This document shows positions 2,454 through 27,875 of a stretch of 32,000 nt of DNA, piece by piece. Position 1 is the stretch's first letter; each line of letters starts with the position of its first letter. A model generated the notes under the pieces. That model was given only the letters and a program-made list of their open reading frames with translations. It did no database searches and was not told the DNA's origin. The stretch comes from Candidatus Eiseniibacteriota bacterium (lineage in GTDB: Bacteria > Eisenbacteria > RBG-16-71-46 > JABDJR01), in the NCBI GenBank assembly GCA_942491735.1, contig CALOCN010000014.1, positions 17,642-49,641 on the forward strand, given 5' to 3'. Made by a program: the position numbers and the translations under genes.

Positions 2454-2465
2454 CGCCGGTCCCTC

Positions 2466-3002
2466 CTATTGGTTGCTTGCCCACCACGTCTGGAATTGAC
2501 TCGCCAGTAGCGCGATGGATGGGGTCTCGTTCGTGGCGAATCTCGGGAAGAGTCCCTTGAAGGTCTCGATCCACTCGTCTACTTTGGATTCTTCGGCCCC
2601 CGCGATGTCCGCCACCATTCTCCTAATCAGGGCGATGTCCCCATTCTGCAGTACGCACTCTTCCTCTATCTTCGTTTGTCTCTCACGCATCTCCAGCTCT
2701 AGAGCGTCCTTTCGCTTGGTCGACGAACTCTGAACGTTTTCCTCAGCAATCTTGGATACGTCGTGGTCGTCTTGAACAGAGCGAATGCGATCCTGAGCTT
2801 CCTTGAGCTCGTCCTCGTAGCGCTTCACCAGCTTGGACTTCGTTTCGGCCATTGGCTCCTCCTTTTCGTCGTCCGGGATAGCAAGCAGTGCCTGAAGCAG
2901 AATGTCGACCTGAGAGGTCTCCTTGCTGGCGTTCAACTCCAGCCGGGAAGTGACTTCGTCGATGATCGCTCGATTCCTTTCGGTAACGTCGTGGATGGTC
3001 AT
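2466..3002 (-). CDS. acidic K/E-rich coiled-coil protein, unknown function
   Basis: 178-aa ORF whose ATG overlaps the upstream stop (ATGA at 2999-3002). It contains long charged heptad-like stretches (KSKLVKRYEDELKEAQDRIRSVQDD..ALELEMRERQTKIEEE). The region is visibly more A/T-rich than its neighbours, consistent with the K/E content. Confidence 0.75.
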   Translation of the reverse strand: MTIHDVTERNRAIIDEVTSRLELNASKETSQVDILLQALLAIPDDEKEEPMAETKSKLVKRYEDELKEAQDRIRSVQDDHDVSKIAEENVQSSSTKRKDALELEMRERQTKIEEECVLQNGDIALIRRMVADIAGAEESKVDEWIETFKGLFPRFATNETPSIALLASQFQTWWASNQ

Positions 3003-4225: not shown

Positions 4226-6756
4226 TAGCGCCGGTACCCGGGAACAACAGCGACGTCAAGCGAGCCCTGGATGCCACGGCGCCACAGGTCGGCCAGGGCG
4301 CCCCCGCGCTGGAACAGATTGCCCTTGAAGAGTCGGAAGACGTTGTCCGACTGAACCGTGAAGACCACAGTGACTCCGTCGGCGCGGTTCTCCACGGCTT
4401 CCTGGAACGTACGGGAGAACGAGGCAAGTCGAGACTTCATGTAGCGGATGAGCTGAGATATGAGGAACCGCATGAGGTAGACCCGGAACCGGTGCCCGGC
4501 GACGCGGAGAACCCCGACAACCACTCTCCCGATGGACTCCTCCGAGGGAACTTCCCTGACGATGCGGAGATTGCGGGTCGGTCTCCCCGAGAGGATTGCG
4601 CGAAGGGCGGAATCCAAGGAGGTTCGGAGACTCGTCACGACAGCAGACAATGACGCGCCCCGTCGTAGCTTGGTTGCGATGTCCTGGGAGGTCGACTCGG
4701 CGAGGAAGTCGTTGACCCGCAATTGCTGCTTGCGGAAATCAATGACGAGGTTGACCTCGCTGGCTCGGGCTGGACTGGGCCGCCTGCCTGTCCCTGGCCG
4801 TGGCCTGACCTGGGCCCCCTCGATCTCGAGATAGAAGAAACGCTGGCCGATTCCGATCAGGTTGCGGTCCATCAGAAAGCGTCGGGCAACCTTGCGACAA
4901 AGCCCGTTGTGACGCGGTATGAGGAGAGCGGCCGCGCGACAGGTCAGCGGGTGGATCTGGCTCCAGGACGAGCGTCTGGCCGAACCGAGTCCGGGGACTC
5001 CGCGCTCAAGCAGCGCAATGTGGCTCAGCGTTGTGCCCCGGATGGCCTGGTAGATGTGCATTTTCGCTCGGATAGGCTTGGACCGGACCGGCAGGCCCAG
5101 CTGCTCGCTAGTGAAACTGAGGAGAGTCTGCCCTCCGAATGTACGAATCCGTGAAGCGGTCTTCGCGTCGATCGTCACGTCGAGTATCTGGGTGTACTTC
5201 TTGTACCGCTTCCGTCCACGCCCTGGCCTCAGTACCCAAGCGCCTGTTCCACCCGGCGCCTCGCGGAGTTCCTCACGGACCGTTTCGGGCGGAAAGTTCG
5301 CCGACACCGCACGCTCGAATGCTGCATTGATGTGCTCGGTCAGCGCTTCCTCATCCTCGAACGCATCCTCCGGGGCTTCCGCGAGAAGGTTCTCAATTGT
5401 CTCCTCGACCGTGGCCGCGACTACTTCCGCTGCGACCAGGGCCTCATCCTCTTCTTGAGCCTCCAGGCGGATAAGCCGGAGACCTGCGCTGACCAGCACT
5501 CGCGACAGAGGCACAGCGTTCCGTCTGCCCACGTACCGGCGAATCAGCCGGGACAAGTAGCGGGCAAGGAAGTTCACGACCTTCCGCCGACCCACAATGC
5601 GGATACCCAGCCGCAGGGCGGGCATGAGGGCCATCACGAATTGCTCGACCTGGGGTGTGGCATCTGCGCCATCTTCCAACTGTATGAGTTCGCGAACGAA
5701 CTGCTCGCGGGCGTTGTCGATTCCTGCAGACGTGTCCTCGAGATTCTCTTCCTCGGAGATGTACTCGACGACCTCCGGAGTCATCTCGAAGTCCTCACCT
5801 GCCAGGACGTATCCCGAGATGATGGCATTGAGCTCCTGCTGAACCACATCGACCGGCACGGAAGCGGCCGCCTCGTCGGACACTTCCCGGTCGGCGGTTT
5901 CGACCCTCTCATCCAGGAACCCCGTCTCGTTCTCTTCCCCCTGGTCCATGTCCTCGCCAAGCTCCGAGGTCTCCCGGCGAAGGAAGACCCGGGCCAAACG
6001 CCGGGCAAGCGGCCGATAACGCCCGGGAATTCTTGAGATAGCAAACCGTAGAACCCGTCGCAGGAGAGGCCGGATGAGTCGTCGCAACTTGCGCAGGAGC
6101 ATGCCAATAGGCATTAGCTTGCCGAGCACGCGAACACCGCGTTTCGCGACTCGAGCAACGGCCTTGGCTGCCCTCTTTGCCTTGCGCCAGACCTTCTTGA
6201 AGAACTCCTCGGTAGCGGGCCCGCCCATCTCCCCCTCGGGGACAAAGCGGGCAAAGAACTCATCGATCTGCTGCTCGGTCATGGACTCGAGGGAGAGCTG
6301 GTCGGCTTCGTCCGCCATACGATCAAGGGAAGCCTCCGCCTGGTCCTGAAGAGGCTTGAGGTAGCTGGTCAGTGCAGCGGTTGCCTCCCGGGAGGACTCC
6401 GTGCCTGCGCTCAAGGCGGGCAGGTGCTGCTCGTACACCCCCGTCAATTCGTCGACCATGTCCTGAGTGGCCTCATCGAACTCCGGGTCGAACAGGGCCT
6501 CCAGCGTCTCACGATACTCCGCCTCTTCCGGGGACTCCATGTTGTCCGTGCCGGCGTACTCGGCGATGAACGGCGAGACAGTGGCTTCCGTATCGGGTGC
6601 GGACAAGGTGAACGCCGCAGCTTCGGCCACCTCAGGGGGGGCGGAGTATGCGGGCTCAGGAAGGAACGGGCTGGACTCCGGATCGGCGATCCCGGCACCG
6701 TTGGTGCTTGCTTCGGACTCAGGCCACTCGATAGCTTCGAGATCTTGCGTTGACAT
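4225..6756 (-). CDS. large hypothetical protein with an acidic N-terminus and two Arg/Lys-rich amphipathic segments
   Basis: 843-aa ORF. ATG 6756 is preceded by GGGAGGA (minus strand cctcGGGAGGAtccATG). Segments: acidic region aa 1-186, basic helix block aa 187-261 (nt 5974-6198), acidic linker, second basic block aa 374-431 (nt 5464-5637), then a C-terminal ~350 aa globular-looking region. No known domain recognised. Confidence 0.8.
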   Translation of the reverse strand: MSTQDLEAIEWPESEASTNGAGIADPESSPFLPEPAYSAPPEVAEAAAFTLSAPDTEATVSPFIAEYAGTDNMESPEEAEYRETLEALFDPEFDEATQDMVDELTGVYEQHLPALSAGTESSREATAALTSYLKPLQDQAEASLDRMADEADQLSLESMTEQQIDEFFARFVPEGEMGGPATEEFFKKVWRKAKRAAKAVARVAKRGVRVLGKLMPIGMLLRKLRRLIRPLLRRVLRFAISRIPGRYRPLARRLARVFLRRETSELGEDMDQGEENETGFLDERVETADREVSDEAAASVPVDVVQQELNAIISGYVLAGEDFEMTPEVVEYISEEENLEDTSAGIDNAREQFVRELIQLEDGADATPQVEQFVMALMPALRLGIRIVGRRKVVNFLARYLSRLIRRYVGRRNAVPLSRVLVSAGLRLIRLEAQEEDEALVAAEVVAATVEETIENLLAEAPEDAFEDEEALTEHINAAFERAVSANFPPETVREELREAPGGTGAWVLRPGRGRKRYKKYTQILDVTIDAKTASRIRTFGGQTLLSFTSEQLGLPVRSKPIRAKMHIYQAIRGTTLSHIALLERGVPGLGSARRSSWSQIHPLTCRAAALLIPRHNGLCRKVARRFLMDRNLIGIGQRFFYLEIEGAQVRPRPGTGRRPSPARASEVNLVIDFRKQQLRVNDFLAESTSQDIATKLRRGASLSAVVTSLRTSLDSALRAILSGRPTRNLRIVREVPSEESIGRVVVGVLRVAGHRFRVYLMRFLISQLIRYMKSRLASFSRTFQEAVENRADGVTVVFTVQSDNVFRLFKGNLFQRGGALADLWRRGIQGSLDVAVVPGYRR

Positions 6757-6911: not shown

Positions 6912-7601
6912 TCAGCCTGTTCGACGCACCCGGGCCACGGCTTGTGTGCGTCGCTTCACGTGAAGCTTCGAGAGAATGTTGTGCACGTGATTCTTGACGG
7001 TAGATCGACCAACGTAGAGGCGATCGGCGATCTCCTGGTTGGAGAGACCCTCGTCTATCAGGGCCAGAATCTCCCGCTCGCGAGGTGTCAGGGACTCAAT
7101 CGTCTCCTCTTCCTCGGGTGCGTCGGGCTGATCATCGATGGTGGCTTGGGGCACCTTCGGGGCAGCAGCTTCCTGCTGAGCCCGAATGTACTCGAAGAGG
7201 ATTTCGGAGATTTGCGGTGGACAGTGAACCTGGTCACGGGCCACACCGTTGACCATTCGTAGGATGTCATCCGTGGTGGCGTCCGCAGGGGCGATCGCAG
7301 TCGCTCCCGCATGTATCGCACCGATGACGGTTGCCGTCGTAGGTTCAACCCCGACAACAATTACCCGCGAATGTGGGAAGGAACCATGAGTCGATAGTAT
7401 CTGGTCCTCGACCTCGCTCAGGTTTGCATCGATGAGCACCAGGTCCGGGGTTGGGCAGATGGAAGCCATGCCCGGCTCCTCAGGTGCTCTGGCCACGACC
7501 CGCATTCCGCCTAGGCTCTCAAGTTCCTTACTGAGGAGATCCCTCAGTAGGCGAACCGAACTGATCAGTAGAAGATTGATTCCATCCATCTTGATCCACA
7601 T
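6912..7601 (-). CDS. LuxR/NarL-family response regulator with an atypical (pseudo-)receiver domain
   Basis: The C-terminus [45 protein letters not shown] is a canonical LuxR-type HTH. The N-terminal receiver-like fold keeps the acceptor Asp (LVLIDAN) but has SS in place of the acidic DD pair (LLLISS) and lacks the conserved Lys (AIAPAD). An alternative start is M5 at 7589. Confidence 0.85.
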
Positions 7602-7789: not shown

Positions 7790-8764
7790 CTACTGTCCAT
7801 CCCCAATCCGCGACCCCAACCCAAACAGCTCGTAATCCTCCCCATACACATCGCTCAACACCTTGAACCCCAGGTGCCCGGTGCAATGCGCCGGCGCCAC
7901 CGTCTTCACCCCCATCCCCTTGAGCCGCTCGGCGATCCCCTGGATCACGTCCCGCGGATAAGGCAACAAGTGGTACCCCCCCACCAAAAGAGCGACATCC
8001 TCTCCCGTGGCCTCCATGGTGCTGCGGACAATCGCCTCCACCGTGCTGTGCGAACAACCCACGAACAGTACGGTGCCCTCGTCCGTGTCCACGGCCAGGG
8101 AGAGTTCGGGCAGGCCAATCAGGTTGGCTTCGGCGTCCTCGTCCTGCGGGTTCCCGTTGACATCCACTCCGGGAAACTTGGTGAAGTACCCGATATTGGA
8201 TGAGCGCGTGGCGATGAGGCGCATGCCGGGCGCGACCTCCTGGGTCTCGGACACGTACTCCACAGCCTTGTAGTAGCGGCCATCCGTGCGAAGGTGCGCC
8301 GTGGTGCTCTCGCCGTCGAAGTACCGCTGCTCCGGCGGCAGGTCGTTGGCGACGTCCGGCTCCCGCCCCGCGATGCCCATGTCGAACGGTCCGCCGGCTC
8401 CCAGGAAGTCCGTGGCGAAGTAGATCGTCACGTCCGGATTGACCTGCATGAGGTAATCGAACCCGCCGGTGTGGTCCGCGTGCGCATGGGAGGCCACGGC
8501 AAAGTCCACCTCGGCCAGATCGATCCCCAGAGCTTCCGCGTTCTGCCGCAGCACATCGGCGCTGGTCCCTGCGTCGAAAAGGACCGAGGTCCCGTTGTGA
8601 CGCAGCAGCGCGGAGTAGCCGAAGTCCTTGCGGGTGCCCTCGTGAACCGCGCCGAATGCGTCGTAGAGGTTGATGATCTCGTAGGCGTGCGCGGGTTGGG
8701 ACGAAACGGCGGCCAAACCCGCGATCAGGACACAGACAGTGGACACGATGTGTCGAGGGGTCAT
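7790..8764 (-). CDS. secreted MBL-fold metallo-hydrolase
   Basis: HAHADH metal-binding motif (VASHAHADHTGG). ATG 8764 has GGAGGA 8 nt upstream and yields the signal peptide MTPRHIVSTVCVLIAGLAAVSSQPAHA. The longer listed start 8818 lacks an SD. Confidence 0.85.
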   Translation of the reverse strand: MTPRHIVSTVCVLIAGLAAVSSQPAHAYEIINLYDAFGAVHEGTRKDFGYSALLRHNGTSVLFDAGTSADVLRQNAEALGIDLAEVDFAVASHAHADHTGGFDYLMQVNPDVTIYFATDFLGAGGPFDMGIAGREPDVANDLPPEQRYFDGESTTAHLRTDGRYYKAVEYVSETQEVAPGMRLIATRSSNIGYFTKFPGVDVNGNPQDEDAEANLIGLPELSLAVDTDEGTVLFVGCSHSTVEAIVRSTMEATGEDVALLVGGYHLLPYPRDVIQGIAERLKGMGVKTVAPAHCTGHLGFKVLSDVYGEDYELFGLGSRIGDGQ

Positions 8765-8816
8765 GGAAAGGTCCTCCGTACGGGCCAGGGTAGGAGTGAG
8801 CTGGCAGACATCCAGC

Positions 8817-8833
8817 ATACCGAAGTTCGGTAT
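8817..8833. promoter_or_regulatory. 17-bp palindrome ATACCGAA-g-TTCGGTAT overlapping a -10-like TATACT (8831-8836); candidate operator/promoter of the RyR operon
   Basis: Perfect 8-bp arms, read directly, in the divergent gap between the MBL hydrolase gene and the RyR gene. A GGCAACG(8837-8843)/CGTTGCC(8853-8859) hairpin follows. No convincing -35 element. Confidence 0.3.
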
Positions 8834-8925: not shown

Positions 8926-9177
8926 ATGAATCTCGACCCCGACACCCTGGAACAATTGGCCAAGGCTGCGCACAAGGTGTGGATGGAGGGCAAGCTCCGT
9001 GACGGCTGGGTCTACGGCAAGACCACCGACAAGGCGGCCAAGGTGCACAGTTGTCTGGTGCCCTATGATGAATTGAGCGAGCCGGACAAGGAATCGGATC
9101 GGGACATGGTGCGGGGGATTCCCGACATTCTGGCCATGGCCGGCTACAGGATCGTGAAGAACGAGGTCAATACCTAG
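8926..9177 (+). CDS. stand-alone RyR (ryanodine-receptor repeat) domain protein
   Basis: The 83-aa product LAKAAHKVWMEGKLRDGWVYGKTTDKAAKVHSCLVPYDELSEPDKESDRDMVRGIPDILAMAGYRIV matches the RyR domain consensus (..aH..W......GW.yG.......HP.LvpY.eLse.eKe.dR......l...G). Confidence 0.85.
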   Translation: MNLDPDTLEQLAKAAHKVWMEGKLRDGWVYGKTTDKAAKVHSCLVPYDELSEPDKESDRDMVRGIPDILAMAGYRIVKNEVNT

Positions 9178-9201
9178 AACCCAGGACCGGGGGAAGTCTT
9201 C

Positions 9202-11280
9202 ATGGCGACCAGGTCGGATCAGAAAACTGCCGCAAACACCCTCCCGATGCAGGTCGTCGGGGATCACAGCACGGATCGATTCATCTATCTGGCCGGGGAG
9301 GATTCCGGCGACCCTCCCAATCTTCGTGAGGCCTGGGTCAATGCGCGACGGTTCTGGATCACCGACCTGCCCGGCGGCACCGGTACCCTGGTTCGATGCC
9401 TGGAGGCCGGGGGTATCGACGTCGCGAACCCAACCACCACCGAACCACAGGAAGCCATCTCGATCTACATGCTCACCAACGCCTCCAAGACGGCCGGGGT
9501 GGAGCGATGGTGTGTGGGCCAGGCTATTGTTGCCGGCGAGAAGGAGTTCTCCCGGTCCCGGTACGAGCCGGATGGCCCGGGTGCCCCGCTGATCGTTCTC
9601 GATTTCAACCAGGGCTGGCTCAAGGCCAACCAGGCCGCGATTCCCGGAACACTGGCCGATCGCCCCTTCCTGGTGCGAACCCACGATCCGTGTCAGGGGG
9701 TCTGGCAGGACTCGAGACGATCCATGAACTCGCCCGGTCTCTGGTTCTCACCCATTCAGGACATGGCCGACGGGTCGCTCTGGTTCGACGGGGCCTGGGA
9801 CTCGATCCGGGCGCGAGTGGCCAATTACCTGCGTCGGGACGACACCCTTTTCGATTCCGATCGGAACGAGTGGCTGCACTTCGTGGTCGTGCAGGTGCAG
9901 TACGACGGCGCGTTGGTATTCGGACCCGGTCTCTCGGTCCACGGCGACTTGTTGATCTTCAAGGGGGACCAGCCCAGATCCTTCGAACGCTCCACCCAGG
10001 GAACGGTGGTCGCGGGAGGGATCGTCTTCACCTACTCCTTGGCCACGCGTCTCCTGCGAGAACCCGGTGTCGACCTGACCGGGAAGGACCGCGCGAAGAT
10101 GCTGCTCGAGGCGACACGGGAGGGCCTGGTCCGGATCCGTGATCTGGTGCGATTGGGCTATGCGCCTCCGCCGAAGGATCAGGGAGCGTCGTGTCAGTGG
10201 CAGCCCGAGTCCGGGACCAATCTTCCCGCGGGGGTTCTGGGCCCGGTGCGGACCACGGAGATCATCAGCTACTCCGCCAAGGCATTCCGGCCTTCCTGGA
10301 ACACGGCCTGCGAGATCGTATCGGGTGCCGACGACCTGCTGCGCAGGAGAACGCCGTTTCGTCTGGGCAACCTCATTGCCACCACACCCGAATACGCGGA
10401 CACCCTGCTGCGTCTGGCCCGTCGTCTGGAGTCCCACGTGTCCGGCGGCAAAGGTGTTCTTTCCTTCTCGATCTTCGGCGGCCCCGGGTCCGGGAAGTCG
10501 TTCGTGGCCGAGGAAGTGGCCGCGGCCGCCGACGCCACCGGTACCAAGCTGGACATGCGGACCTTCAACCTCTCGCAGTTCACCGGTGCGGACCGCCTTC
10601 TCGATGCCTTCAAGCAGATCCAGACCATTGGCCTGCAGGGGAAGATTCCGATCGTCATCTGGGACGAGTTCGACACGGTGTGGAATGGGGAGCAGTGTGG
10701 GTGGCTGTCCTCGTTCCTCATGCCCATGCAGGATCACACGTTCTTCGATGGACACACCACGCGCGCCCTGGGCAAGAGCGTGTTCGTCTTCGTGGGCGGA
10801 ACCTTCAAGGACGACCCGAATTTCGTGGAGTGGACCGAGACTCGGGAGGGGAAGCGCCTGAAGGGCCCGGACTTCCATAGCCGGCTCAGCCGGAGTCTGG
10901 CCGTTCCGGCCGTGGATGCCGAGACCTATCCCGAGTCGTACCGGAAGTCCACAGATCCCTCCATCCTGGTGCGCGCGGTGATGATCCGGACGTTCCTGCG
11001 CAAGACCCCGGTGGAAGCTATCTCCCGGGAGGTGCTCGCCTATCTGCTGCATGTTCCCCTGCAGCACGGGGTCCGTAGCCTCAAACAACTCGTCAACAAC
11101 AGCGAACTGTCCCGGACCAGGATCTTTCGCAGCTATCACATGCCTCCGGAAGATGTCCTCGCCCTGCATGTGAAGTCCGATGGGTTCTCGGAGAACCATT
11201 CCATGGACGCGGTGACCAACCGTCTCGTGGCACACGACCTGAGAAGTTCCGATTCCCTGCCCTTGGAGTGGAAGGCCTAG
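9202..11280 (+). CDS. AAA+ ATPase with a ~320-aa N-terminal domain of unknown function (weak ribokinase/PfkB-like pattern)
   Basis: Walker A GGPGSGKS (nt 10477-10500), Walker B IVIWDEFD (nt 10654-10677), sensor-1-like VFVFVGGT and an Arg-rich DFHSRLSRSLAVP, which together indicate a classical AAA module. The N-terminus (MQVVGDHSTDRF..LPGGTGTLVRCLEAGGIDV..TVVAGGIVFTYSLATRLL) loosely follows the PfkB fold pattern but lacks the GAGD motif. The start is 24 nt after the RyR gene, with a GGGGGAAG SD. Confidence 0.85.
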   Translation: MATRSDQKTAANTLPMQVVGDHSTDRFIYLAGEDSGDPPNLREAWVNARRFWITDLPGGTGTLVRCLEAGGIDVANPTTTEPQEAISIYMLTNASKTAGVERWCVGQAIVAGEKEFSRSRYEPDGPGAPLIVLDFNQGWLKANQAAIPGTLADRPFLVRTHDPCQGVWQDSRRSMNSPGLWFSPIQDMADGSLWFDGAWDSIRARVANYLRRDDTLFDSDRNEWLHFVVVQVQYDGALVFGPGLSVHGDLLIFKGDQPRSFERSTQGTVVAGGIVFTYSLATRLLREPGVDLTGKDRAKMLLEATREGLVRIRDLVRLGYAPPPKDQGASCQWQPESGTNLPAGVLGPVRTTEIISYSAKAFRPSWNTACEIVSGADDLLRRRTPFRLGNLIATTPEYADTLLRLARRLESHVSGGKGVLSFSIFGGPGSGKSFVAEEVAAAADATGTKLDMRTFNLSQFTGADRLLDAFKQIQTIGLQGKIPIVIWDEFDTVWNGEQCGWLSSFLMPMQDHTFFDGHTTRALGKSVFVFVGGTFKDDPNFVEWTETREGKRLKGPDFHSRLSRSLAVPAVDAETYPESYRKSTDPSILVRAVMIRTFLRKTPVEAISREVLAYLLHVPLQHGVRSLKQLVNNSELSRTRIFRSYHMPPEDVLALHVKSDGFSENHSMDAVTNRLVAHDLRSSDSLPLEWKA

Positions 11281-13061
11281 GAGACGCTTTGCATCAGTCC
11301 TCTGCTGGGCCTCCGCCAAGTCCCCGCCGTCGCCTTGTCTTCCTGGGCGTGACGCTCGGCGTGTGGGCACTGGGTACGTACGGGTATTGGCTCCACGGAA
11401 CAACGCATGGGTCGAAGTACGGTGATCCCTACTTCCTGGAGTACGTCTATCGCGCCGCCCAGCTCTTCGTGCTCCACATGCCGCACGAGCAGTTGCCTCT
11501 CCCCTGGCCCCTGGAGTTCGCCCGATTCCTGGCCCCTGCCATCGCCTTTGTCGCGGTGGCCGAGGCGATGTTCTCCCTGGCGCGTCGTCGCATTACCCGC
11601 CTGCGTGTCCAGCGCCAAAGCGATCACATTCTTGTCTGTGGTGCGGGTTGGAAGGGCTTGCGTCTGGCCAAGGAGTATCAGGAACGAGGCGAGAGGGTTG
11701 TGGTGGTTGAGCGGGACGAGGCCAATCCGGGACTCGTGGAGTGCGAGACCCTCGGCATTCCGGTCCAGATAGGAGATGCCTCGGACCCGCAGTTGTTGGA
11801 GTCGTTGAACGCACACAAGGCGAAGGTGTTGCTGGCCACCGCCGGAAGCGACGGCGCCAACCTGCAGATCGCCACCGCGGCCCGCAACCTGACCGCGGCC
11901 AAGCGGGATGGGGAGCGGCACGCGCTCCAGTGTTTCGTGGACATCCGGGATGTCGCCGACCGGACCCTGTTTCGACAGCAGCCCATCCTGGCCGGGGACG
12001 ATCGCCGGATCATTGTCACGGTGACCGGAGTCGACCTGTACGAAAACTCGGCCCGCCGGTTGTTCCAGAAGTATCCGCTCCACGAAGGTGCGGACAGCGC
12101 AAAGGTCCTGGGGGTCCCGCATCTGGTTCTGCTGGGCTTTGGACAGATGGGAGAAAGCGTGCTGCTCCAGGCAGCCAGAATCGCCCACTATCCCGGTGGG
12201 CATCGGCTCCAGGTCACCGTGTTCGACCCGGCCGTGGATCTCAAGGAGAGGCAGTTCCGGGATCGCTATCCCCGGATCGATAGCGCCTGCGACGTGGTGT
12301 TCGAGTCGTGCGATCCCGATAACCCCCAGTTGCTGGATCGTGCGGCCGGCTTGTGTCGTCAGGCCGGGCAGCATGTCACGGTGGTCGTGTGCTTCCCCGA
12401 AGACAGTTTCAATACGAGAGTGGCTCTGGGTCTGTCGCGCCGACTCTCGGGGGACGCCTGCAGGGTCCGGGTTCGCTTGGACTCGGAAGATGGCTTGGCC
12501 TCCCTGGTGACCCGGGAGGATCACGCGTACCTGGATCACGACCGGTTCACTCCGTTCGGCAGTCGTGCCGAAGCCTGCACGGTGGAGATGCTGGAGCGGA
12601 GCAAGCAGGACAAGCTGGCCCGCGCCATCCACGATCACTATGTGGCCAAGGAGAGGGAAAAGGGCGAGACCCCCGAGAGCAACCCCTCCATGAGACCCTG
12701 GGAAAAGCAGAACGAGGTGATGAGGGACTCCAACCGGTACGCCGCCGATCACATCGACATCAAGCTGTGGTCGATCGGGGCTTCCCGGGTGCCGGCCTCG
12801 CGCTCGGAACCGGTGGTGCCGTTGTCGGCAGAGCAGATCGAGGTCCTGGCTCCCACCGAGCACGCGCGTTATTGCGCGGATCGATTCCTGGCCGGCTGGG
12901 CGCCGGCTCCGGCCGGACAGCCCAAGGACCACGTGGCGCGAGTCAATCCCACGCTGATTCCCTGGGAGGAGCTGAGTGAAGAGGAGAAGGAGAAGGATCG
13001 CTGGGCGGTGGGGCAGTTGCCGGAGTTGTTGGGGATGATCGGGGAGAGGATTGTCTGGTAG
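11268..13061 (+). CDS. membrane protein: N-terminal TM helices + TrkA_N (RCK/NAD-binding) domain + second Rossmann-like domain + two C-terminal RyR repeats
   Basis: GTG 11268 lies 13 nt inside the end of the AAA+ gene. Hydrophobic helices are LVFLGVTLGVWALGTYGYWL, AAQLFVL and FLAPAIAFVAVAEAMFSLA. TrkA_N: HILVCGAGWKGLRLAKEYQERGERVVVVERDE (GxGxxG at nt 11640-11657). Second Rossmann-like domain: HLVLLGFGQMGESV. RyR repeats span aa 447-505 and 524-595 (nt 12606-13052; ..TLIPWEELSEEEKEKDRWAVGQLPELLGMIG). Confidence 0.85.
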   Translation: MEGLGDALHQSSAGPPPSPRRRLVFLGVTLGVWALGTYGYWLHGTTHGSKYGDPYFLEYVYRAAQLFVLHMPHEQLPLPWPLEFARFLAPAIAFVAVAEAMFSLARRRITRLRVQRQSDHILVCGAGWKGLRLAKEYQERGERVVVVERDEANPGLVECETLGIPVQIGDASDPQLLESLNAHKAKVLLATAGSDGANLQIATAARNLTAAKRDGERHALQCFVDIRDVADRTLFRQQPILAGDDRRIIVTVTGVDLYENSARRLFQKYPLHEGADSAKVLGVPHLVLLGFGQMGESVLLQAARIAHYPGGHRLQVTVFDPAVDLKERQFRDRYPRIDSACDVVFESCDPDNPQLLDRAAGLCRQAGQHVTVVVCFPEDSFNTRVALGLSRRLSGDACRVRVRLDSEDGLASLVTREDHAYLDHDRFTPFGSRAEACTVEMLERSKQDKLARAIHDHYVAKEREKGETPESNPSMRPWEKQNEVMRDSNRYAADHIDIKLWSIGASRVPASRSEPVVPLSAEQIEVLAPTEHARYCADRFLAGWAPAPAGQPKDHVARVNPTLIPWEELSEEEKEKDRWAVGQLPELLGMIGERIVW

Positions 13062-13142
13062 GCGGGAGTCGGATCGTCGCGGGTCACCCCCAGCCTGAGG
13101 AGCCATGGAGTACAATCCCACCAACCTCTAGGAGGATCTCTC

Positions 13143-16100
13143 GTGCCCTCCAAAACCTTGTTGTCCCTGAAAACAACGCTGCGCGGCGGCCAGAGCTGGT
13201 TTGGCCGACTCGAATGGTCCCCGGACGGCACAAGGATCGCCGCCGGCTGCGGTGACAAGGCAGTCTACTTGTGGACTCCCGAAGCCGGTTCTACGCCCTC
13301 CCAGCTCAAAGGCCATAAGGGCTCGGTGTTTGACGTCAGTTGGGCACCCGACGGCCGACGTCTGGCCTCCGCGTCGCGGGACGGGACGGTTCGGGTCTGG
13401 GACGTGACCGCCGGCTATCCCGAACGTGTGCTGGAAGGTCACCAGGACGCGGTACGCACCGTTGCATGGTCCCGCGACGGCACGCGGTTGGTCACCGGCG
13501 CCCGAGACGACACCATGCGGGTCTGGGATGCGTCTTCGGGGGATCAGCTCCATCAGATCACCGGCCTGGATTCGGTCAGGAGCGTGGCTTGGTCCCCGGA
13601 CGGGTCGTTCTTGGCATCGGGGGGAGGGCCAAGAACGGTGTTCGTCTGGGACCCCAACACCTGGAAACCGGTCTGGACCGGAGCGGGACACAAGGCCTAT
13701 GTGTTCTGTGTTGCCTGGTCCCCTGACCAGAGGTTGATAGCCTCCTGCTCCACGGACAAGACGATCGGAATCTGGGAAGCCGTTTCGGGTCGCCAATTGG
13801 CGGTACTCGAGGGCCACACCAACCGTGTCGGTTGTGTCGCGTTCTCGGCGGATTGCCGATGGTTGGCCTCGAAGTCGACCGACGGCACGGTCCGCATCTG
13901 GAACACGCAGAACTGGGAGCCTGCGCAGGTGCTGGCTGAGCCCCCGGTCGCGCGTGTCTTTCCAGGCTTGGCATTTCATCCCTCGGAGCCGCTCCTAGCC
14001 ACCCTTGGGGAGAGGGACTCGGAAGTCCGCCTGTGGACCGTAGACCCGAGTGTCCCTGGAAAGAGTGACACGGCAGGGTCGCCCGAGGTGGTCCGACACA
14101 GAACCGCCAAGATCGCGCTCCTCGGAGACTCGGGCGTGGGCAAGACCACTCTGGGGCATCGCCTCGCGGAAGGTGAGTTCAAGAAGTACCCATCTACCCA
14201 TGGTCAGCAATTCTGGGTCATTCCTGAGTTCGGTACTCGCCTCGAGGACGGGACCCAATGTGAAGCCGTTCTATGGGATTTTGCGGGGCAACCCGACTAT
14301 CGGCTGGTTCATGCCCTCTTTCTCGAGGATGTGGACTTGGCTTTGATTGTCTTTGATCCCACGGATCCGAGGGATCCTTTCCATGGAGTGGACTACTGGC
14401 TCCGGGCTCTTGCCCATCGCAATGAAGCGTGTCGGTGCGTTCTGGTTGCCGGGCGCACGGACGTAGGCCAGCCCAGAGTCACCCAGGATGAAATCGATGC
14501 CTTCTGCCGTGAGCGGGGGATCGCCGGCGGGTTCGTGAGTACCAGCGCCCTTGAGGGCACAGGTATGGAAACCCTCGCCGCGATGATTCACAGTCAACTG
14601 GACTGGCAGCGGGTTGTCAGTACGACGACGACCGGGGTGTTCAAGCGGATCAAGGACCAGGTCATGGCCATTAAGGAGGATGCAGGGGGTCAGGGTGTTC
14701 TTCTCACACCCAAGCGACTACGGGAGCTTCTCGGCGAGAACGAGACCGAGACCGGGCTCGAGAACGAGTTCAGCGACGACGAGTTGTTGACGGCCGTCGA
14801 ACACCTGGCCAAGCACGGGTATGTGAGTCTTCTCCGGTCGTTTGACGAACGACGGACGATCCTTCTGGTGCCGGAATTGCTGAACAATCTGGCAGCCTCC
14901 TTCATTGTCGAGGCTCGTCGCAACCCGAAAGGTCTTGGAGCTCTCGAGGAGCGGCGAGTCCTGGAGGGGCGGTATCCCTTTCCCGAGCTGGAGGGCCTGG
15001 GGGACGGCGAGCCCCAGGTTCTGCTGGAATCCGCGGTCGCTCTGTTCATGAGAAGCAACGTGTGTTTCCGGGAAACGCTGGGTGAGGATTCGTTCCTGGT
15101 GTTCCCCGAGTTGATCAACGTGAAGGAACCTCGGGACAACGATGAGAGCGAGTTCATCGATGACTACTCGTACACTGCCCAGGGTGCCATCGAGAACGTC
15201 TACTCCTCTCTGGTCGTGCTCATGGGATACACTAACGTGATCCGTCGTGCCCACCAGTGGCGAAACCATGCGCGTTACCAGATCGAAGAAGGTGAGTTCT
15301 GCGGGTTCCGGCAGGTGCGCGAACGTGAGGGTGAGATCGACTTCCAGTTGTATGCGTCGGAGTCCGCGAAGCCCGAGTCCCGCCAGACCTTCCGCTCCCT
15401 GTTCGAGCAGTTTCTCTCCCGCCACCCGGTCACCGTTACCAAGTATCCGGTCCTGATCTGTCCGGACGGGCATCATCAGGAGCGATCCACGGTGATTCGG
15501 CGTGTGCGTCAGCAGAAGGACTTTCTCCACTGCGACGAGTGTGGTGAGCGTGTCTCGATCGCCAACGTGGTGTCCGGCCCTTCCATCGTCGTGGGCGACC
15601 ACCGAGACACCAGGAAGCATGCCGCCGAAGCCACCCGACGCACGCGCTTCGAGACCTGTCTGGTGATGATCAACGCCTATCGGAGCGATCAGAAGAGCCC
15701 TGTCTGCTTCATCAGCTATGCCTGGGGGATTCCCGAGCACGAACGCTGGGTGGAACGGAGGCTTGCCCTGGACCTGCGCAAGGCGGGGATCCGGATCATC
15801 CTTGATCGCTGGCATGGAATCGGTGGCAGCCTGGGTCGGTTCGTCGGCCAGATCGATCAGGCCGACAACATCGTTGTGGTTGGAACGCCCCTATATCGGG
15901 AGAAGTACGAGAACAAGGTCTCCGATACCGGCAGCGTCGTTGCCGCGGAGGTCGACCTGATCAACAATCGCCTCCTTGGTACGGAAGAGCACAAGGAGAC
16001 TGTTATCCCCGTGCTCCTGGATGGCGAGCCAAGGAGTTCGTTGCCTCCGCTCATGCAGGCCAGGTTTCATGTGAACTTCAAGGAGCCGGATGCCTACTTC

Positions 16101-16208
16101 ACCGGCTTGTTCGATTTGATCCTTCACCTCTATCGGATTCCCTTCGAAAGCCCCGCGGTTGCCGAACTGCGGGATGCCCTGACCCTGGAGGCTATTGGGG
16201 ACGCGTAG
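13143..16208 (+). CDS. WD40(x7)-Roc GTPase-COR-Zn-ribbon-TIR family multidomain protein (ROCO-type)
   Basis: GTG 13143 has GGAGGA (13131-13136) 6 nt upstream. Seven W(S/A)PDG-type WD40 blades cover aa ~8-300. Roc: P-loop GDSGVGKT (nt 14124-14147), DFAGQ (nt 14277-14291), a variant G4 (AGRTDV) and TSAL. The COR-like region covers aa ~490-765. Zn-ribbon: C773-x3-H777 ... C797-x2-C800 (nt 15459-15551). The C-terminal TIR_2-like domain covers aa ~852-1000 (nt 15696-16142: VCFISYAWG..GIRIILDRW..NIVVVGTPLY..VVAAEVDLI..VIPVLLDGEP). Confidence 0.9.
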   Translation: MPSKTLLSLKTTLRGGQSWFGRLEWSPDGTRIAAGCGDKAVYLWTPEAGSTPSQLKGHKGSVFDVSWAPDGRRLASASRDGTVRVWDVTAGYPERVLEGHQDAVRTVAWSRDGTRLVTGARDDTMRVWDASSGDQLHQITGLDSVRSVAWSPDGSFLASGGGPRTVFVWDPNTWKPVWTGAGHKAYVFCVAWSPDQRLIASCSTDKTIGIWEAVSGRQLAVLEGHTNRVGCVAFSADCRWLASKSTDGTVRIWNTQNWEPAQVLAEPPVARVFPGLAFHPSEPLLATLGERDSEVRLWTVDPSVPGKSDTAGSPEVVRHRTAKIALLGDSGVGKTTLGHRLAEGEFKKYPSTHGQQFWVIPEFGTRLEDGTQCEAVLWDFAGQPDYRLVHALFLEDVDLALIVFDPTDPRDPFHGVDYWLRALAHRNEACRCVLVAGRTDVGQPRVTQDEIDAFCRERGIAGGFVSTSALEGTGMETLAAMIHSQLDWQRVVSTTTTGVFKRIKDQVMAIKEDAGGQGVLLTPKRLRELLGENETETGLENEFSDDELLTAVEHLAKHGYVSLLRSFDERRTILLVPELLNNLAASFIVEARRNPKGLGALEERRVLEGRYPFPELEGLGDGEPQVLLESAVALFMRSNVCFRETLGEDSFLVFPELINVKEPRDNDESEFIDDYSYTAQGAIENVYSSLVVLMGYTNVIRRAHQWRNHARYQIEEGEFCGFRQVREREGEIDFQLYASESAKPESRQTFRSLFEQFLSRHPVTVTKYPVLICPDGHHQERSTVIRRVRQQKDFLHCDECGERVSIANVVSGPSIVVGDHRDTRKHAAEATRRTRFETCLVMINAYRSDQKSPVCFISYAWGIPEHERWVERRLALDLRKAGIRIILDRWHGIGGSLGRFVGQIDQADNIVVVGTPLYREKYENKVSDTGSVVAAEVDLINNRLLGTEEHKETVIPVLLDGEPRSSLPPLMQARFHVNFKEPDAYFTGLFDLILHLYRIPFESPAVAELRDALTLEAIGDA

Positions 16209-16243: not shown

Positions 16244-17212
16244 ATGAAAGCCATCACCTACACCCAGTACGGCCCGCCCTCGGTCCTGCGCCTCCAGGAC
16301 ATTTCCAAGCCTGTCCCCAAGCCCGATCAACTCCTTGTCCGGGTTCGCGCCGCCGCGGTCAATCCCTACGACTGGCACTTCCTGCGTGGCCTTCCCTATT
16401 TCATGCGACTTATCTCGGGGATCCGCGCGCCACGCCGGCCCACCCTGGGGGCCGACTTCGCCGGTGAGGTGGAGGCGGTGGGGAGCAAGGTCACCGAGTT
16501 CCGACCCGGTGATGCGTTGTTTGGTTTCGCGGACGGAACGTTCGCCGAGTACGTTGTGGCCAAACCCAAGCAGGTGGCGCTCAAGCCGGACGGCGTCTCG
16601 TTCGAGCAGGCGGCCTCGCTTCCCATTGCCGGCATCACCGCGCTCCAGGGCCTGCGTGATGTCGGCAAGCTGCAGCCGGGTCAGCGGGCGCTCATCGTGG
16701 GCGCATCCGGGGGCGTGGGAACGTTCGCGGTTCCGCTGGCCAAACACTTCGGCGCCCATGTGACCGGCGTGTGCAGCACGCGCAACCTGGAACTGGTCCG
16801 CTCCCTGGGTGCCGACCACGTGATTGACTACACCCAGGAAGACTGGACCACGTCGCCCGAACCGTACGATCTGGTCTTGCACCTCGCCGGGAGGGACTCG
16901 CCCGGTCGTTGCCGGACGGTGCTTACCCCCAAGGGGAGTTTGATTCTCAGCAGCGGGGATTCGGACAACCGTTGGTTGGGACCCTTGGGAAGCGTGCTCG
17001 GGGCCCTGCTCCTTTCCCCGTTTGTGGGGCAGAAGCTGACCATGGTTAACGCCAAGCCACGAACGGCTGACCTGGAGGCGCTTGCCGCCTACGTGGCGGA
17101 CGGGACGATGACTCCGATCCTGGGGGAATCCTATCCCCTGGCGGAGACCGCTCAGGCGATGGCGCAGATCGAGACGGCGCATACGCGAGGGAAGATCCTG
17201 ATAACTCCCTGA
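16244..17212 (+). CDS. NAD(P)H:quinone oxidoreductase / zinc-type alcohol dehydrogenase-like (MDR superfamily)
   Basis: MKAITYTQYGPPSVLRLQDISKPVPKPDQLLVRVRAAAVNPYDW.. is typical of zeta-crystallin-like MDRs. It has the GASGGVG Rossmann motif and the C-terminal TRGKILI. Confidence 0.9.
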   Translation: MKAITYTQYGPPSVLRLQDISKPVPKPDQLLVRVRAAAVNPYDWHFLRGLPYFMRLISGIRAPRRPTLGADFAGEVEAVGSKVTEFRPGDALFGFADGTFAEYVVAKPKQVALKPDGVSFEQAASLPIAGITALQGLRDVGKLQPGQRALIVGASGGVGTFAVPLAKHFGAHVTGVCSTRNLELVRSLGADHVIDYTQEDWTTSPEPYDLVLHLAGRDSPGRCRTVLTPKGSLILSSGDSDNRWLGPLGSVLGALLLSPFVGQKLTMVNAKPRTADLEALAAYVADGTMTPILGESYPLAETAQAMAQIETAHTRGKILITP

Positions 17213-17331
17213 CCCACCACTTTTCTTGTGCAGTTCTTCCGTCTGACGGCATTTACCCAATGTACGCCTGCCCCGCTCCGATTCCGGCTGACTGGGTCAG
17301 GCGATGGTCCACGACCCATTGGGAGACTGCC

Positions 17332-18291
17332 GTGAAGAAACAATTGATCGCCCTCGTTGCCCTGACGACCCTCCTGAGCCCCCTCGCCGCCTTCGCCGAG
17401 GTACCGCCGGTCTTCCTCCGTGGTTGGGGGGGCAATGGTCCGGACGGGTTCAATCTGGTCTCGGACCTTGGGATCGGGCCCACGGGCTATCTGTACTCGG
17501 TGGAAGTGCACGCTAGGCGAGTTCAGTACTTCAACCAGGACGGCACGCCAATGGGCTCCTGGGGCTCCTTCGGCAGTGGGCCCGGGGAGTTCAAGCTTCC
17601 CCAAGGGCTCCATGTATCCCCCACGGGTGTCGTCTATGTCGCCGATTGGGACAACTACCGATACCAGAAGTTCAATTCGGTGGGTACGTACCTTTCCGAG
17701 TTCTCCGACGGCAACAAACCCGCCGATCTTGACTTCGATTCCGCCGGAAACATTTACGTGGTCCAAACCCAGAATCACCGGATCCGGAAGTTCTCCAGTT
17801 CGGGATCCCTCATTCTCCAATGGGGCAGCTTCGGTTCCATCACCGGTCAGTTCAAGTCCCCCTATCACATCGTTATCGACGACTCGGATCGCGTCTATGT
17901 CACGGATGTGGGCAATGATCGGGTGCAGGTCTTCAACACTTCCGGTGGCTTTCTCTTTGGATGGGGGGCCAATGGAACGGGTGACGGCCAGTTCGACTCC
18001 CCGCACGGGATTGCCCAGGACGCACAAGGCAACATCTACGTCACGGACACGGACAACGGGCGAGTTCAGAAGTTCACTTCGGAGGGGGTATTCCTGACCA
18101 AGTTTGGTTCCTGGGGTAGTGGGGACGGAGAGTTCGTCGCTCCCTACGGAATCGTCGTCAACGACCTGGGAGAAGTATTCGTTGGGGACGACAAGAGGAT
18201 CCAGGTGTTCGGCGAGGCCCCGGTTGCCGTGGAGAAGACCACCTGGGGGGCGATCAAGAGCGCGGTGAGAGATCCGCAAGAGCAGCCCTAG
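17332..18291 (+). CDS. secreted NHL-repeat beta-propeller protein
   Basis: GTG 17332 yields the signal peptide VKKQLIALVALTTLLSPLAAFA; the listed ATG 17260 adds a non-signal leader. There are six repeats of G.G.GEF..P.GI.VD..GN.YV.D..N.R.Q.F type. The protein ends in ..EKTTWGAIKSAVRDPQEQP. Confidence 0.75.
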   Translation: MKKQLIALVALTTLLSPLAAFAEVPPVFLRGWGGNGPDGFNLVSDLGIGPTGYLYSVEVHARRVQYFNQDGTPMGSWGSFGSGPGEFKLPQGLHVSPTGVVYVADWDNYRYQKFNSVGTYLSEFSDGNKPADLDFDSAGNIYVVQTQNHRIRKFSSSGSLILQWGSFGSITGQFKSPYHIVIDDSDRVYVTDVGNDRVQVFNTSGGFLFGWGANGTGDGQFDSPHGIAQDAQGNIYVTDTDNGRVQKFTSEGVFLTKFGSWGSGDGEFVAPYGIVVNDLGEVFVGDDKRIQVFGEAPVAVEKTTWGAIKSAVRDPQEQP

Positions 18292-18348
18292 GTCGTGATC
18301 GCCGTCGGTTCCTGTGACTTTATCCTTCTCACTAGGAGAGCCAATTCC

Positions 18349-19188
18349 ATGCGGTATCTAGCCATGATGATGCTGGTCCCTTGCCTCTTTGTCTCCCAGA
18401 CTTCCGCCCAGGTTGTGGTAGCGGATCTGCATGCTTACGTTCTTCAGAACAACGGCACCCCCCCACCGTCCCCCAAGTACGGGTTTGGCGACGGTGAGTG
18501 GTTCGTGGGGAGCTACGGTCCCTGGTCCCTGGGGGGAGTGAACCATCGGAGCCCCAATGGAACCGCCCAAGGACTCCCGGCCATGTCGGGAGACAGCTGG
18601 GCATTCGCCGGCTGGAGCCGGGGTGCGGCACCCAACTGTTGCGATTTCAAGACGGTTCGACTCGCGGAGGAAACCTTCACGGCGTCACTCCTGATGCGCA
18701 ACTATCCGGTGCAAACAACGCAGCGCAGCATGATCCTGGGTTGGGCCGTGCCGGATCACGTGACCTCTGTCAGCAGAATCGTTCTCGTCGTCGAGAATGA
18801 CCCCGGGTGCCACCCGGAAGTCGAGGGCACCTGGGGAGGCACCATTGGACCATGCCAGGACCCTCCGATCATTTCGGACGTGGAGGTGTCCGCGGGATGG
18901 GCGACCTACGGGGGGTGCTGTGGTGCCTGGAGCCTAAGAGGGTCCATTACTCCGTTCGTGGTCCCCGGTGGAGACCAGACCGTGTTCGAGGTCGCCGCAG
19001 CGGACCCCGTCAGTGGGGACCCGGTGGAGACGATCGGACCGGGCCATCGCATCTATGTGGTCTTCCGACAGCCCAACAACGGCCTATTCGAACTGGCCAA
19101 CGTCAACCTGCAGGTTTGGGGAACATCCGATCAGCCGGTACCTACGGAGCCGACCACATGGGGCAAGCTGAAGCACTACGGACAGTAG
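18349..19188 (+). CDS. secreted hypothetical protein (Trp/Gly-rich, beta-rich), with a C-terminal TTWGKLK motif
   Basis: ATG 18349 is preceded by AGGAGA. The signal peptide is MRYLAMMMLVPCLFVSQTSAQ. No known domain recognised. Confidence 0.7.
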   Translation: MRYLAMMMLVPCLFVSQTSAQVVVADLHAYVLQNNGTPPPSPKYGFGDGEWFVGSYGPWSLGGVNHRSPNGTAQGLPAMSGDSWAFAGWSRGAAPNCCDFKTVRLAEETFTASLLMRNYPVQTTQRSMILGWAVPDHVTSVSRIVLVVENDPGCHPEVEGTWGGTIGPCQDPPIISDVEVSAGWATYGGCCGAWSLRGSITPFVVPGGDQTVFEVAAADPVSGDPVETIGPGHRIYVVFRQPNNGLFELANVNLQVWGTSDQPVPTEPTTWGKLKHYGQ

Positions 19189-27725: not shown

Positions 27726-27875
27726 GGCCGCATCGTATCTTCTCGTGACGGATCCATGTCAACCGGCCTCACGTCCACGCCTCCACTCGTATCACTCTCC
27801 CGTACCCGCCTTCCAGCTAGTTGCGCGAGCGGTGCGGTATTGCCCGCCCCTCGTTTCCAACTACCCTCCCACCCC

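Follow-up and report, generated by a model that had tools for sequence, protein, structure and literature searches.

Four clustered genes pairing RyR domains with an AAA+ ATPase, a channel-like protein and a TIR-like enzyme: a candidate Thoeris-like signalling module in Candidatus Eiseniibacteriota

A stretch of Candidatus Eiseniibacteriota DNA (contig CALOCN010000014.1, positions 17,642 to 49,641 of the forward strand; 32,000 nucleotides, hereafter the window) carries four adjacent genes, g1 to g4, and raises the question of whether they form one system and what such a system would do. They encode a stand-alone RyR domain (g1), an AAA+ ATPase (g2), a membrane protein with TrkA_N and RyR domains (g3) and a WD40-GTPase-TIR protein (g4). 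An initial annotation, made from the sequence, had read them as a conflict-type system linked to nicotinamide adenine dinucleotide (NAD) and matching no named system. The NAD-linked association is supported here as a conserved association of genes. We put the chances at about even that the cluster is a Thoeris-like TIR-signalling conflict or defence module in which RyR/Repeat12 domains serve as nucleotide-binding receivers.

The genomic neighbourhood of the ATPase was analyzed in 151 loci around g2 relatives, 134 of them non-redundant, whose six-frame open reading frames (ORFs) were scanned. Single-sequence phmmer searches of these 151 loci with the TIR and Roc segments of g4 returned nothing, so TIR_2 and DUF4062 genes were searched for with iterative hidden Markov models seeded with TIR and DUF4062 sequences of the loci themselves. 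An RyR domain is fused to the ATPase or adjoins it in 87 of the 134 loci. TIR-like genes are present in 49/134 (TIR_2 in 32, DUF4062 in 23), and in 22/43 where at least 12 kb of flank was available. Within 1 kb of the ATPase there are 16.6 of them per 100 kb, whereas at distances of 4-10 kb there are 0-2.3 per 100 kb (binomial p 1e-12); in 37 of 46 cases they lie on the ATPase strand (p 4e-5). All partner sequences submitted to Pfam were confirmed (7/7 TIR_2 plus one DUF4062, then 10/10 in a second batch), and in the alignment of the partner TIRs, 32 of 36 rows have the catalytic Glu.

The TIR-like partners differ in architecture and include DUF4062-NACHT/AAA_16-TPR/WD40, TIR_2-STAND-WD40, TIR_2-WD40 and TIR_2-TPR-OmpA proteins; DUF4062 proteins are the commonest partners of g2 orthologues (L001, L002, L165 and others). 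ATPase and TIR_2 also occur in single polypeptides, as TIR_2-PfkB-like-AAA+ in L018:8828-12526 and as N-domain-AAA+-RyR-HTH(sigma70 region 4-like)-TIR_2 in L099:5061-9056. Proteins of the g3 type were found in eight sampled loci, five of which also have TIR-like genes. The complete set of four component types is seen in L009 (Thermodesulfobacteriota), L017 (Zipacnadia), L064 (Hydrogenedentota) and the metagenome contigs L111 and L134, in varying gene order. The locus of the closest g2 orthologue (L165) reads RyR (84 aa)-ATPase-DUF4062/AAA_16/WD40 on one strand; that of the closest g3 homologue (L164) has TIR_2-nSTAND1-TPR beside the channel protein with a RelA_SpoT-RyR gene nearby; and L154 (Vicinamibacterales) holds a minimal set of TIR_2, g3 homologue and small RyR. 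The gene g1 belongs to a host operon that recurs on long contigs of bacterial metagenome-assembled genomes and metagenome assemblies. What is conserved of the proposed four-gene unit is the association and not the exact set, and its core consists of RyR, the (PfkB-like)-AAA+ ATPase and a TIR-like partner of varying architecture.

In the window, the four co-directional ORFs are present exactly at the coordinates and on the strand first given (Table 1). It is doubtful that g3 starts with the GTG at 11268, 13 nt within g2. More likely is the TTG at 11289 chosen in the deposited gene call, which lies 8 nt past the g2 stop and 6 nt after AGGAG. The genes are packed tightly whichever start applies. 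Base composition is flat across the cluster, and a promoter and terminator scan, otherwise uninformative, found no terminator between g1 and g4. On the same strand after g4 (16244-19188) lie a Zn-dependent dehydrogenase (Zn-ADH), an NHL-repeat protein and a 297-aa protein, with gaps of 35, 47 and 3 nt, and the transcription unit may run on into these genes. Since their gaps are equally short, spacing alone does not define the unit; the Zn-ADH, NHL and 297-aa families do not recur in related loci.

The cluster could also be a chance or island juxtaposition, with g4 as an autonomous WD40-GTPase-SEFIR NADase, g3 as a homeostatic nucleotide-gated channel and g1-g2 as a separate two-gene module. 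The housekeeping-type genes set just as closely behind g4 fit this picture, as do g4 homologues without RyR, AAA+ or g3-type partners and a g3 homologue that stands alone in L152. It does not account for the enrichment and same-strand bias of TIR-like genes near the ATPase, for the TIR-ATPase(-RyR) fusions or for the meeting of all four component types in distant lineages, and we consider it improbable. Chance adjacency had been named at the outset as an objection to the cluster; by the neighbourhood statistics, the adjacency exceeds chance.

The RyR domain is found in both g1 and g3. Pfam agrees with the RyR call for g1, and the sequence matches of g1 in the Protein Data Bank (PDB) are repeats of RyR1-3 and a Bacteroides 'putative ryanodine receptor' (3nrt/6uag). 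Small RyR genes orthologous to g1 flank g2 orthologues, and tblastn found 235 g1 homologues in phage records. Phage RyDEP cleaves 2'/3' cyclic ADP-ribose (2'/3'cADPR) through an H75/D117 dyad, W78 and H100 touch the ligand, and related phage proteins sponge 2'/3'cADPR with nanomolar affinity (PMC13232231). Phage RyR Tad binds the 1''-3' glyco-cyclic isomer (1''-3' gcADPR) through H129/W132, H154 and D171 (10.64898/2026.06.04.730250). Both proteins are dimers, and single RyR repeats dimerise into the Repeat12 fold (PMC13232231; 10.64898/2026.06.04.730250). The spacing of the g1 tetrad, +3, +25 and +42, is identical to that of H75/W78/H100/D117 in RyDEP and H129/W132/H154/D171 in RyR Tad. In single ATPase-fused RyRs the H, W, H and D are kept in 56/57, 54/57, 51/57 and 54/57, respectively, and most stand-alone RyRs have them as well. 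The tandem RyR modules across loci combine a degenerate repeat 1 (H-Y-x-N) with a canonical repeat 2 (H-W-H/S-D). The early suggestion of RyR as a shared ligand module gains support from the two 2026 phage-RyR preprints and from the ligand residues conserved here.

By attachment, the outputs seen with RyR are the ATPase, the channel and RelA/SpoT. No separate TIR or DUF4062 partner protein in the sampled loci carries an RyR domain; the sole protein with both is the L099 ATPase fusion. Judged by its varied outputs, its replacement by an FCD domain and its absence from TIR partners, RyR appears to act like the sensor module of second-messenger immunity. The FCD case is L147:7880-11425, a distant relative of the g2 ATPase with this GntR-type ligand-binding domain at the C-terminus where its relatives have RyR. 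The RelA/SpoT case is L164:8596-11235, an 879-aa RelA_SpoT-RyR fusion near the TIR_2-nSTAND1-TPR gene and the closest g3 homologue, and it suggests an alarmone-type output under RyR control. Short ORFs of 41-43 aa lie at or overlap the end of the ATPase gene in L001:12073-12198 and L002:12063-12194; the L001 one resembles the N-terminal half of RyR, and these ORFs may be remnants of a decayed downstream RyR or channel gene.

An adaptor role for RyR, the other possibility raised initially, would work in the manner of Death-like or effector-associated domains (EADs), with RyR-RyR dimers joining ATPase, channel and small subunits and no small-molecule signal involved. Dimerisation of single repeats into the Repeat12 fold and the presence of one small helical domain on several operon proteins, as with EADs (Kaur 2020), would suit it. 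EAD logic, however, needs a copy on the core sensor, and the adaptor reading is disfavoured because no separate TIR-like partner protein carries RyR. The nearly invariant ligand-contact residues and the exchange of RyR for a ligand-binding domain in L147 also argue against it, so that we regard it as highly improbable.

A different role for the RyR proteins would be host-encoded regulation that limits autoimmunity: g1, which has the H16/D58 dyad, would remove the TIR product by hydrolysis or sponging, and the RyR-controlled AAA+ protein would disassemble active TIR oligomers. Ring nucleases of type III CRISPR and Trip13 in the cyclic-oligonucleotide-based antiphage signalling system (CBASS) are analogues. 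In its favour, g1 and the majority of ATPase-linked RyRs retain both RyDEP dyad residues, proteins of the RyDEP type have been proven to degrade or sponge signals, and a remodelling role would suit an AAA+ protein beside an oligomerising NTPase; NADase effectors of the TIR-STAND and g4 types can act alone, so their partners could be modulatory. However, RyR is also fused to plausible killing outputs (the filterless channel and RelA_SpoT), which is typical of effector sensor domains, and the PfkB-like domain has no obvious remodeller role. Most of the dyad-bearing RyDEP homologues assayed did not cleave the signal (PMC13232231). We consider this regulatory role unlikely, although a good deal less so than the adaptor role.

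The 692-aa protein g2 combines two modules, and the domain calls made for it at first hold. The match of its AAA+ module to PF00004 is weak (E 6.6e-5; 23.8 bits, cut-off 21.2), its Walker motifs are intact (Walker A GGPGSGKS 426-433, Walker B VIWDEFD 485-491), and both motifs are invariant in 17 homologues. In the AlphaFold2 (AF2) model (predicted local distance difference test, pLDDT, 83; predicted template modelling score, pTM, 0.83) the C-terminal half matches NtrC1, p97 and ClpC1 by Foldseek. The N-terminal domain, previously listed as unknown, is now identified as a ribokinase-like fold: Foldseek matches in the PDB are HldA, ketohexokinase, ribokinase, adenosine kinase and PFK-2 (E 2e-7 to 1e-5, template modelling score about 0.55 per target), the best at E 2e-7 and probability 1.00. 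Residues 1-400 have no Pfam match, and a PDB sequence-profile search with this domain gave spurious weak matches only; as there is no PfkB signal at the sequence level, the assignment is one of fold. The domain keeps glycine-rich motifs reminiscent of ribose-binding loops. The position of the catalytic Asp of the PfkB GAGD motif, read by eye from sequence alignments, is taken by a nearly invariant G273 in 'VVAGGIVF' (AGG(I/V)). The domain is probably not a kinase, and we take it to be a putative ligand-binding pseudo-kinase domain.

Relatives of g2 are numerous. A word-indexed search gave 51 matches, and a g2 profile run against 1.84 billion 50%-identity cluster representatives gave 3,143 relatives. 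Of these, 1,857 reach E<=1e-30, and many of the 3,143 match over the N-domain as well as the ATPase. Among ATPase-family representatives of at least 780 aa, sampled independently, 43 of 68 have a C-terminal RyR. Because RyR is either a small gene beside g2 orthologues or fused C-terminally in distant relatives, g1 and g2 together are, by their sequences, a split form of a common fused (PfkB-like)-AAA+-RyR architecture.

For g3, the transmembrane (TM) helices, TrkA_N domain and two RyR repeats read from the sequence were corroborated by Pfam, homologues and fold matches. TrkA_N is matched at E 1.5e-18, and RyR PF02026 at E 1.1e-7 over residues 523-591, which is repeat 2. The first repeat (about residues 441-520) is degenerate and was recovered through homologues and a fold match to RyR3 Repeat12. 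The ligand positions read H, Y, N, N in repeat 1 and H, Y, N, D in repeat 2, and this asymmetry between the repeats recurs across homologues. The AF2 model (pLDDT 88.7) has membrane-region helices at 12-40, 49-61 and 73-109 (numbering of the modelled P0052). By Foldseek the full chain matches GsuK (4gx5, E 1e-9), with MthK, the TrkA gating ring and Slo1 also found, and the C-terminus matches human RyR3 Repeat12 (9ls7, E 8e-5). A T(V/I)GYG K+ selectivity filter is absent from g3 and from the family consensus of 30 sequences, which reads 'LQLFVL......G..PW' at the would-be filter position. The model makes g3 a 2-TM channel protein of the GsuK kind, with two RCK domains in tandem and an RyR Repeat12-like module. 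The proposal that the membrane TrkA_N protein reads an NAD-type ligand fits this fold by analogy, since crystal structures of GsuK have NAD and ADP bound to the RCK domains. Among the 86 g3 homologues listed, most of them without an organism name, none is named Bacillus or Vibrio.

The fourth gene encodes a protein of 1021 aa. Of the WD40-Roc-COR-Zn-ribbon-TIR order first read in it, the WD40 propeller, the Roc GTPase, the Zn-ribbon-like motif and the TIR_2/SEFIR domain stand. The GTPase matches Roc PF08477 (E 1.1e-19, residues 323-440) and Ras PF00071 (E 9.4e-20), and its PDB sequence matches include Rab GTPases at 6e-16. The COR domain does not stand: Pfam has no match at E<=1 in residues 481-830, the PDB sequence matches include neither Roco nor LRRK2 chains, and the Pfam lists of g4 homologues name no COR family among the matches listed. 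COR is thus unsupported by sequence, and a divergent COR may be present. The C-terminal domain matches TIR_2 (8.4e-13) and SEFIR (1.9e-5) in Pfam, and the PADLOC bSEFIR profile PDLC03957 at 1.6e-26 (profile positions 21-193 of 412, g4 residues 836-1008); its best PDB sequence match is the Bacillus SEFIR 5y8e (E 3.7e-12), with E936 aligned with the Glu of that protein. MAFFT misplaced E936 relative to the partner TIRs, and for this reason the partner Glu was counted in its own column and the g4 Glu is supported through the 5y8e alignment. The residue numbers first given for the Roc P-loop (K334), the g2 Walker A (K432) and this Glu are correct. In all, nearly all of the first domain calls hold, the exception being the undetectable COR; the g3 start codon is uncertain. 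The g4 family counts at least 1934 homologues.

Taken as a Thoeris-like module, the cluster would work as follows. The sensor-producer would be g4, whose WD40 propeller would recognise an invader cue and whose Roc-type GTPase switch would license oligomerisation and activation of the C-terminal SEFIR/TIR domain. Once active, this domain would consume NAD+ and release a nucleotide of the ADP-ribose (ADPR) family, either a cADPR isomer or ADPR, to be bound by the RyR domains of two effector arms. In the first arm, the RCK gating ring and Repeat12-like module of a tetrameric, filterless g3 would open a non-selective pore, and the membrane potential would collapse. The second arm would consist of g1 and g2: RyR dimers that have bound the ligand would switch the ATPase, which together with its ribokinase-like domain would be another output. 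The direction of signalling, the identity of the ligand, the opening of the channel, the output of the ATPase and the defence phenotype are what we infer; the domain anatomy, the genomic coupling of RyR, ATPase and TIR-like genes (fusions included) and the conservation of the RyR ligand residues and the TIR Glu are observed.

Several observations weigh against this interpretation. About half of the well-flanked ATPase loci have no TIR-like gene, the loci were sampled through g2 relatives only, and genes were called by a simple longest-ORF heuristic. All three g4-homologue contexts sampled lack an RyR, AAA+ or g3-type partner (two lie amid housekeeping and transposase genes, one in a TIR/SLATT/patatin neighbourhood), and the g4 family appears mostly autonomous; because of these contexts, g4 is linked to g1-g3 by adjacency and by analogy with the DUF4062 and TIR-STAND partners. 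Homologues of g3 occur without a TIR neighbour in Archangium (L152) and Micromonospora (L153), and the flanks of the window are unlike a defence island. The H/W/H/D residues are common across PF02026, including animal RyRs that bind ATP or ADP, so the tetrad does not specify a TIR product. The g3 repeats in the window are moreover partly degenerate, with Y for W and N for the phosphate His. What is known of the component functions here comes from computation. DUF4062 enzymes, finally, are reported to make linear ADPR and not a cyclic signal (10.64898/2026.05.01.722283).

The cluster was compared with known systems, and the view that it matches none of them stood up: PADLOC hit only the SEFIR domain of g4 and nothing in g1-g3, and the papers searched describe no host-encoded RyR defence system. 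Full-text searches that combined RyR with terms for defence, conflict systems, Thoeris or TIR/STAND found only the phage papers and work on other subjects, and the RyDEP paper does not describe this assembly (PMC13232231). Thoeris types I-XI (Yirmiya et al. 2025, 10.64898/2025.12.03.692087) likewise place a TIR enzyme with a catalytic Glu beside proteins that join a small-molecule-binding domain to a toxic output, membrane effectors among them. In our loci too, a TIR with the catalytic Glu adjoins a putative effector gene (ATPase or channel) with RyR as the putative signal-binding domain, and this arrangement is conserved across genomes. Unlike in Thoeris, the TIR here sits on large WD40/GTPase or STAND sensors and not on a small ThsB, the putative receiver is RyR/PF02026, and the outputs are a (PfkB-like)-AAA+ protein and a GsuK-like RCK channel. 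Yirmiya et al. describe about 29 effector types, including type X with a TIR and an 'ion channel' whose signal is unknown (from Bacillus sp. BH32 / B. cereus Q1), and their text and tables do not contain RyR, TrkA or AAA (10.64898/2025.12.03.692087). By its description, the type X pair resembles g4 and the channel-like g3. A plasmid search with the published type X TIR gave 10 matches, and the 6 inspected were all of the type II kind: in five a Macro-domain gene lies beside the TIR gene, and in the sixth the record breaks off just behind it. The cluster looks like a form of TIR-signalling immunity whose receiver domain and effectors are new.

Phage RyDEP and RyR Tad share the PF02026 fold with g1 and its H/W/H/D residues at identical spacing. 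They are virus-encoded inhibitors, whereas g1 is host-encoded and RyR is here fused or coupled to the ATPase, the channel or RelA/SpoT beside TIR genes. SEFIR defence depletes NAD+. The single-gene bSEFIR defence (Millman et al. 2022; PADLOC PDLC03957) has a domain of the same SEFIR type as g4, N-terminal in bSEFIR but C-terminal in g4 to the WD40, Roc-like GTPase and Zn-ribbon regions; g4 was not accepted as bSEFIR, as it covers only part of that profile and does so at its C-terminus. The NADase-NTPase-repeat logic of g4 is also that of the DUF4062/NIR TIR-like NADase-STAND proteins (Swarozyc, Evangelion, TEP1/NWD/NPHP3), which differ in having DUF4062-NACHT where g4 has SEFIR/TIR_2 and a Ras-like GTPase. 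DUF4062 is a TIR-like NADase, and its proteins are described as self-contained NAD+ depleters making ADPR, with no RyR or AAA+ partner mentioned (10.64898/2026.05.01.722283). With Roco proteins g4 shares the Roc GTPase, and the COR that directly follows Roc in them is undetected by sequence. The g2 N-domain has the fold of PfkB/ribokinase kinases without their profile membership or GAGD Asp. The NTP-dependent ternary conflict systems of Kaur et al. 2020 were rejected as a match, since no vWA or MoxR domains are present here; that paper does not mention RyR, ryanodine, TrkA or SEFIR.

The RCK-gated K+ channels GsuK, MthK and TrkA resemble g3 in fold over pore, RCK1 and RCK2 and in both GxGxxG motifs. 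In contrast to them, g3 has no TVGYG filter, carries an added C-terminal Repeat12 and keeps the genomic company of TIR proteins and not of K+ transport genes. Animal RyRs resemble g3 as channel-type proteins with a two-repeat RyR module and nucleotide-contact residues, and g3 is tied genetically to members of an enzyme family that produces cADPR. A 2-TM RCK channel and the six-TM giant RyR are nevertheless unrelated in pore and gating architecture, so that any evolutionary link concerns the Repeat12 module only. A bolder form of our interpretation holds that there is a bacterial pathway from TIR through (c)ADPR to a Repeat12-gated ion channel, in which nucleotides made by TIR enzymes would have their physiological receptor in the Repeat12 module of GsuK-like channels and (PfkB-like)-AAA+ ATPases; this would make a new Thoeris-type class and a prokaryotic antecedent of the animal cADPR-RyR link. 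We advance it tentatively, as possible but rather less probable than the module itself.

Table 1. Genes and domains of the g1-g4 cluster, in window positions.
Feature	Position	Strand	Support
g1, stand-alone single RyR (Repeat12-type), 83 aa	8926-9177	+	PF02026 E 2.9e-18; H16/W19/H41/D58
g2, whole ORF	9202-11280	+	
g2 N-terminal domain (about aa 15-400), ribokinase/PfkB-like fold	9244-10401	+	AF2 and Foldseek
g2 AAA+ module (about aa 405-665), K432, D488/E489	10414-11196	+	PF00004, motifs and Foldseek
g3, whole ORF	11268-13061	+	
g3 membrane region: a short pore-helix-like helix flanked by two long TM helices	11322-11615	+	AF2 model, Foldseek
g3 tandem RCK/Rossmann domains: RCK1 = TrkA_N, GAGWKG 125-130; RCK2 GFGQMG 290-295	11619-12587	+	Pfam, Foldseek
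g3 RyR tandem (Repeat12-like)	12588-13061	+	Repeat 1 H455, Y458, N489; repeat 2 H532, Y535, N560, D577
g4, whole ORF	13143-16208	+	
g4 WD40 beta-propeller, presumed sensor	13176-14042	+	PF00400 E 3.7e-62, six stretches; many propeller families
g4 Roc/Ras-like GTPase	14100-14597	+	P-loop GDSGVGKT (K334), DFAGQ 379-383; Pfam, PDB sequences
g4 linker of about 290 aa, then Cys/His Zn-ribbon-like motif (CPDGHH 773, CDECG 797)	14598-15545	+	Motifs
g4 C-terminal SEFIR/TIR_2, candidate catalytic Glu E936	15699-16166	+	Pfam, PADLOC, PDB sequence

PADLOC and PHROGs, run on flanking ORFs of the window, pointed to neither a defence island nor a prophage, and the Pfam matches of the window include no integrase or transposase. 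On the minus strand at 1380-6756 lie four packed or overlapping ORFs (357, 178, 408 and 843 aa) without a significant Pfam, PADLOC or PHROG match. The 843-aa ORF has an acidic N-terminal half and long Arg-rich segments, and this operon adjoins a LuxR-type response regulator (6912-7601). Directly upstream of g1 and divergent from it, a metallo-beta-lactamase (MBL)-fold protein (7790-8818, minus strand) has sub-threshold similarity to the anti-Pycsar Apyc1 family (E 6e-4) and to the PADLOC reverse transcriptase (RT)-associated MBL model, which is probably generic MBL similarity. On the other side of the cluster are two very large Ser/Thr kinases (19845-23372, minus strand; 27423-30509, plus strand), one with HEAT repeats and one with PD40/beta-propeller repeats; they are accompanied by LVIVD-repeat proteins, proteins with a type IX secretion system (T9SS)-sorting domain and a sigma factor of the extracytoplasmic function (ECF) type. 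The PADLOC PD-T4-6 matches of the window kinases were rejected as a defence signal, as they reflect the generic kinase domain only.

RyR domains were linked to TIR signals only in mid-2026, as phage countermeasures, and a host-encoded RyR would change that picture. If the Thoeris-like interpretation is true, bacterial second-messenger immunity would gain a new receiver domain and new effector classes, and some 1,900-3,100 uncharacterised ATPase clusters would gain a function. The RyR sponges of phages would be explained as mimics of a host receptor. The parallel to the animal cADPR-ryanodine-receptor axis is suggestive, and the cluster would then make it possible to study, in a tractable bacterium, if and in what way nucleotides of the cADPR type act on RyR Repeat12.

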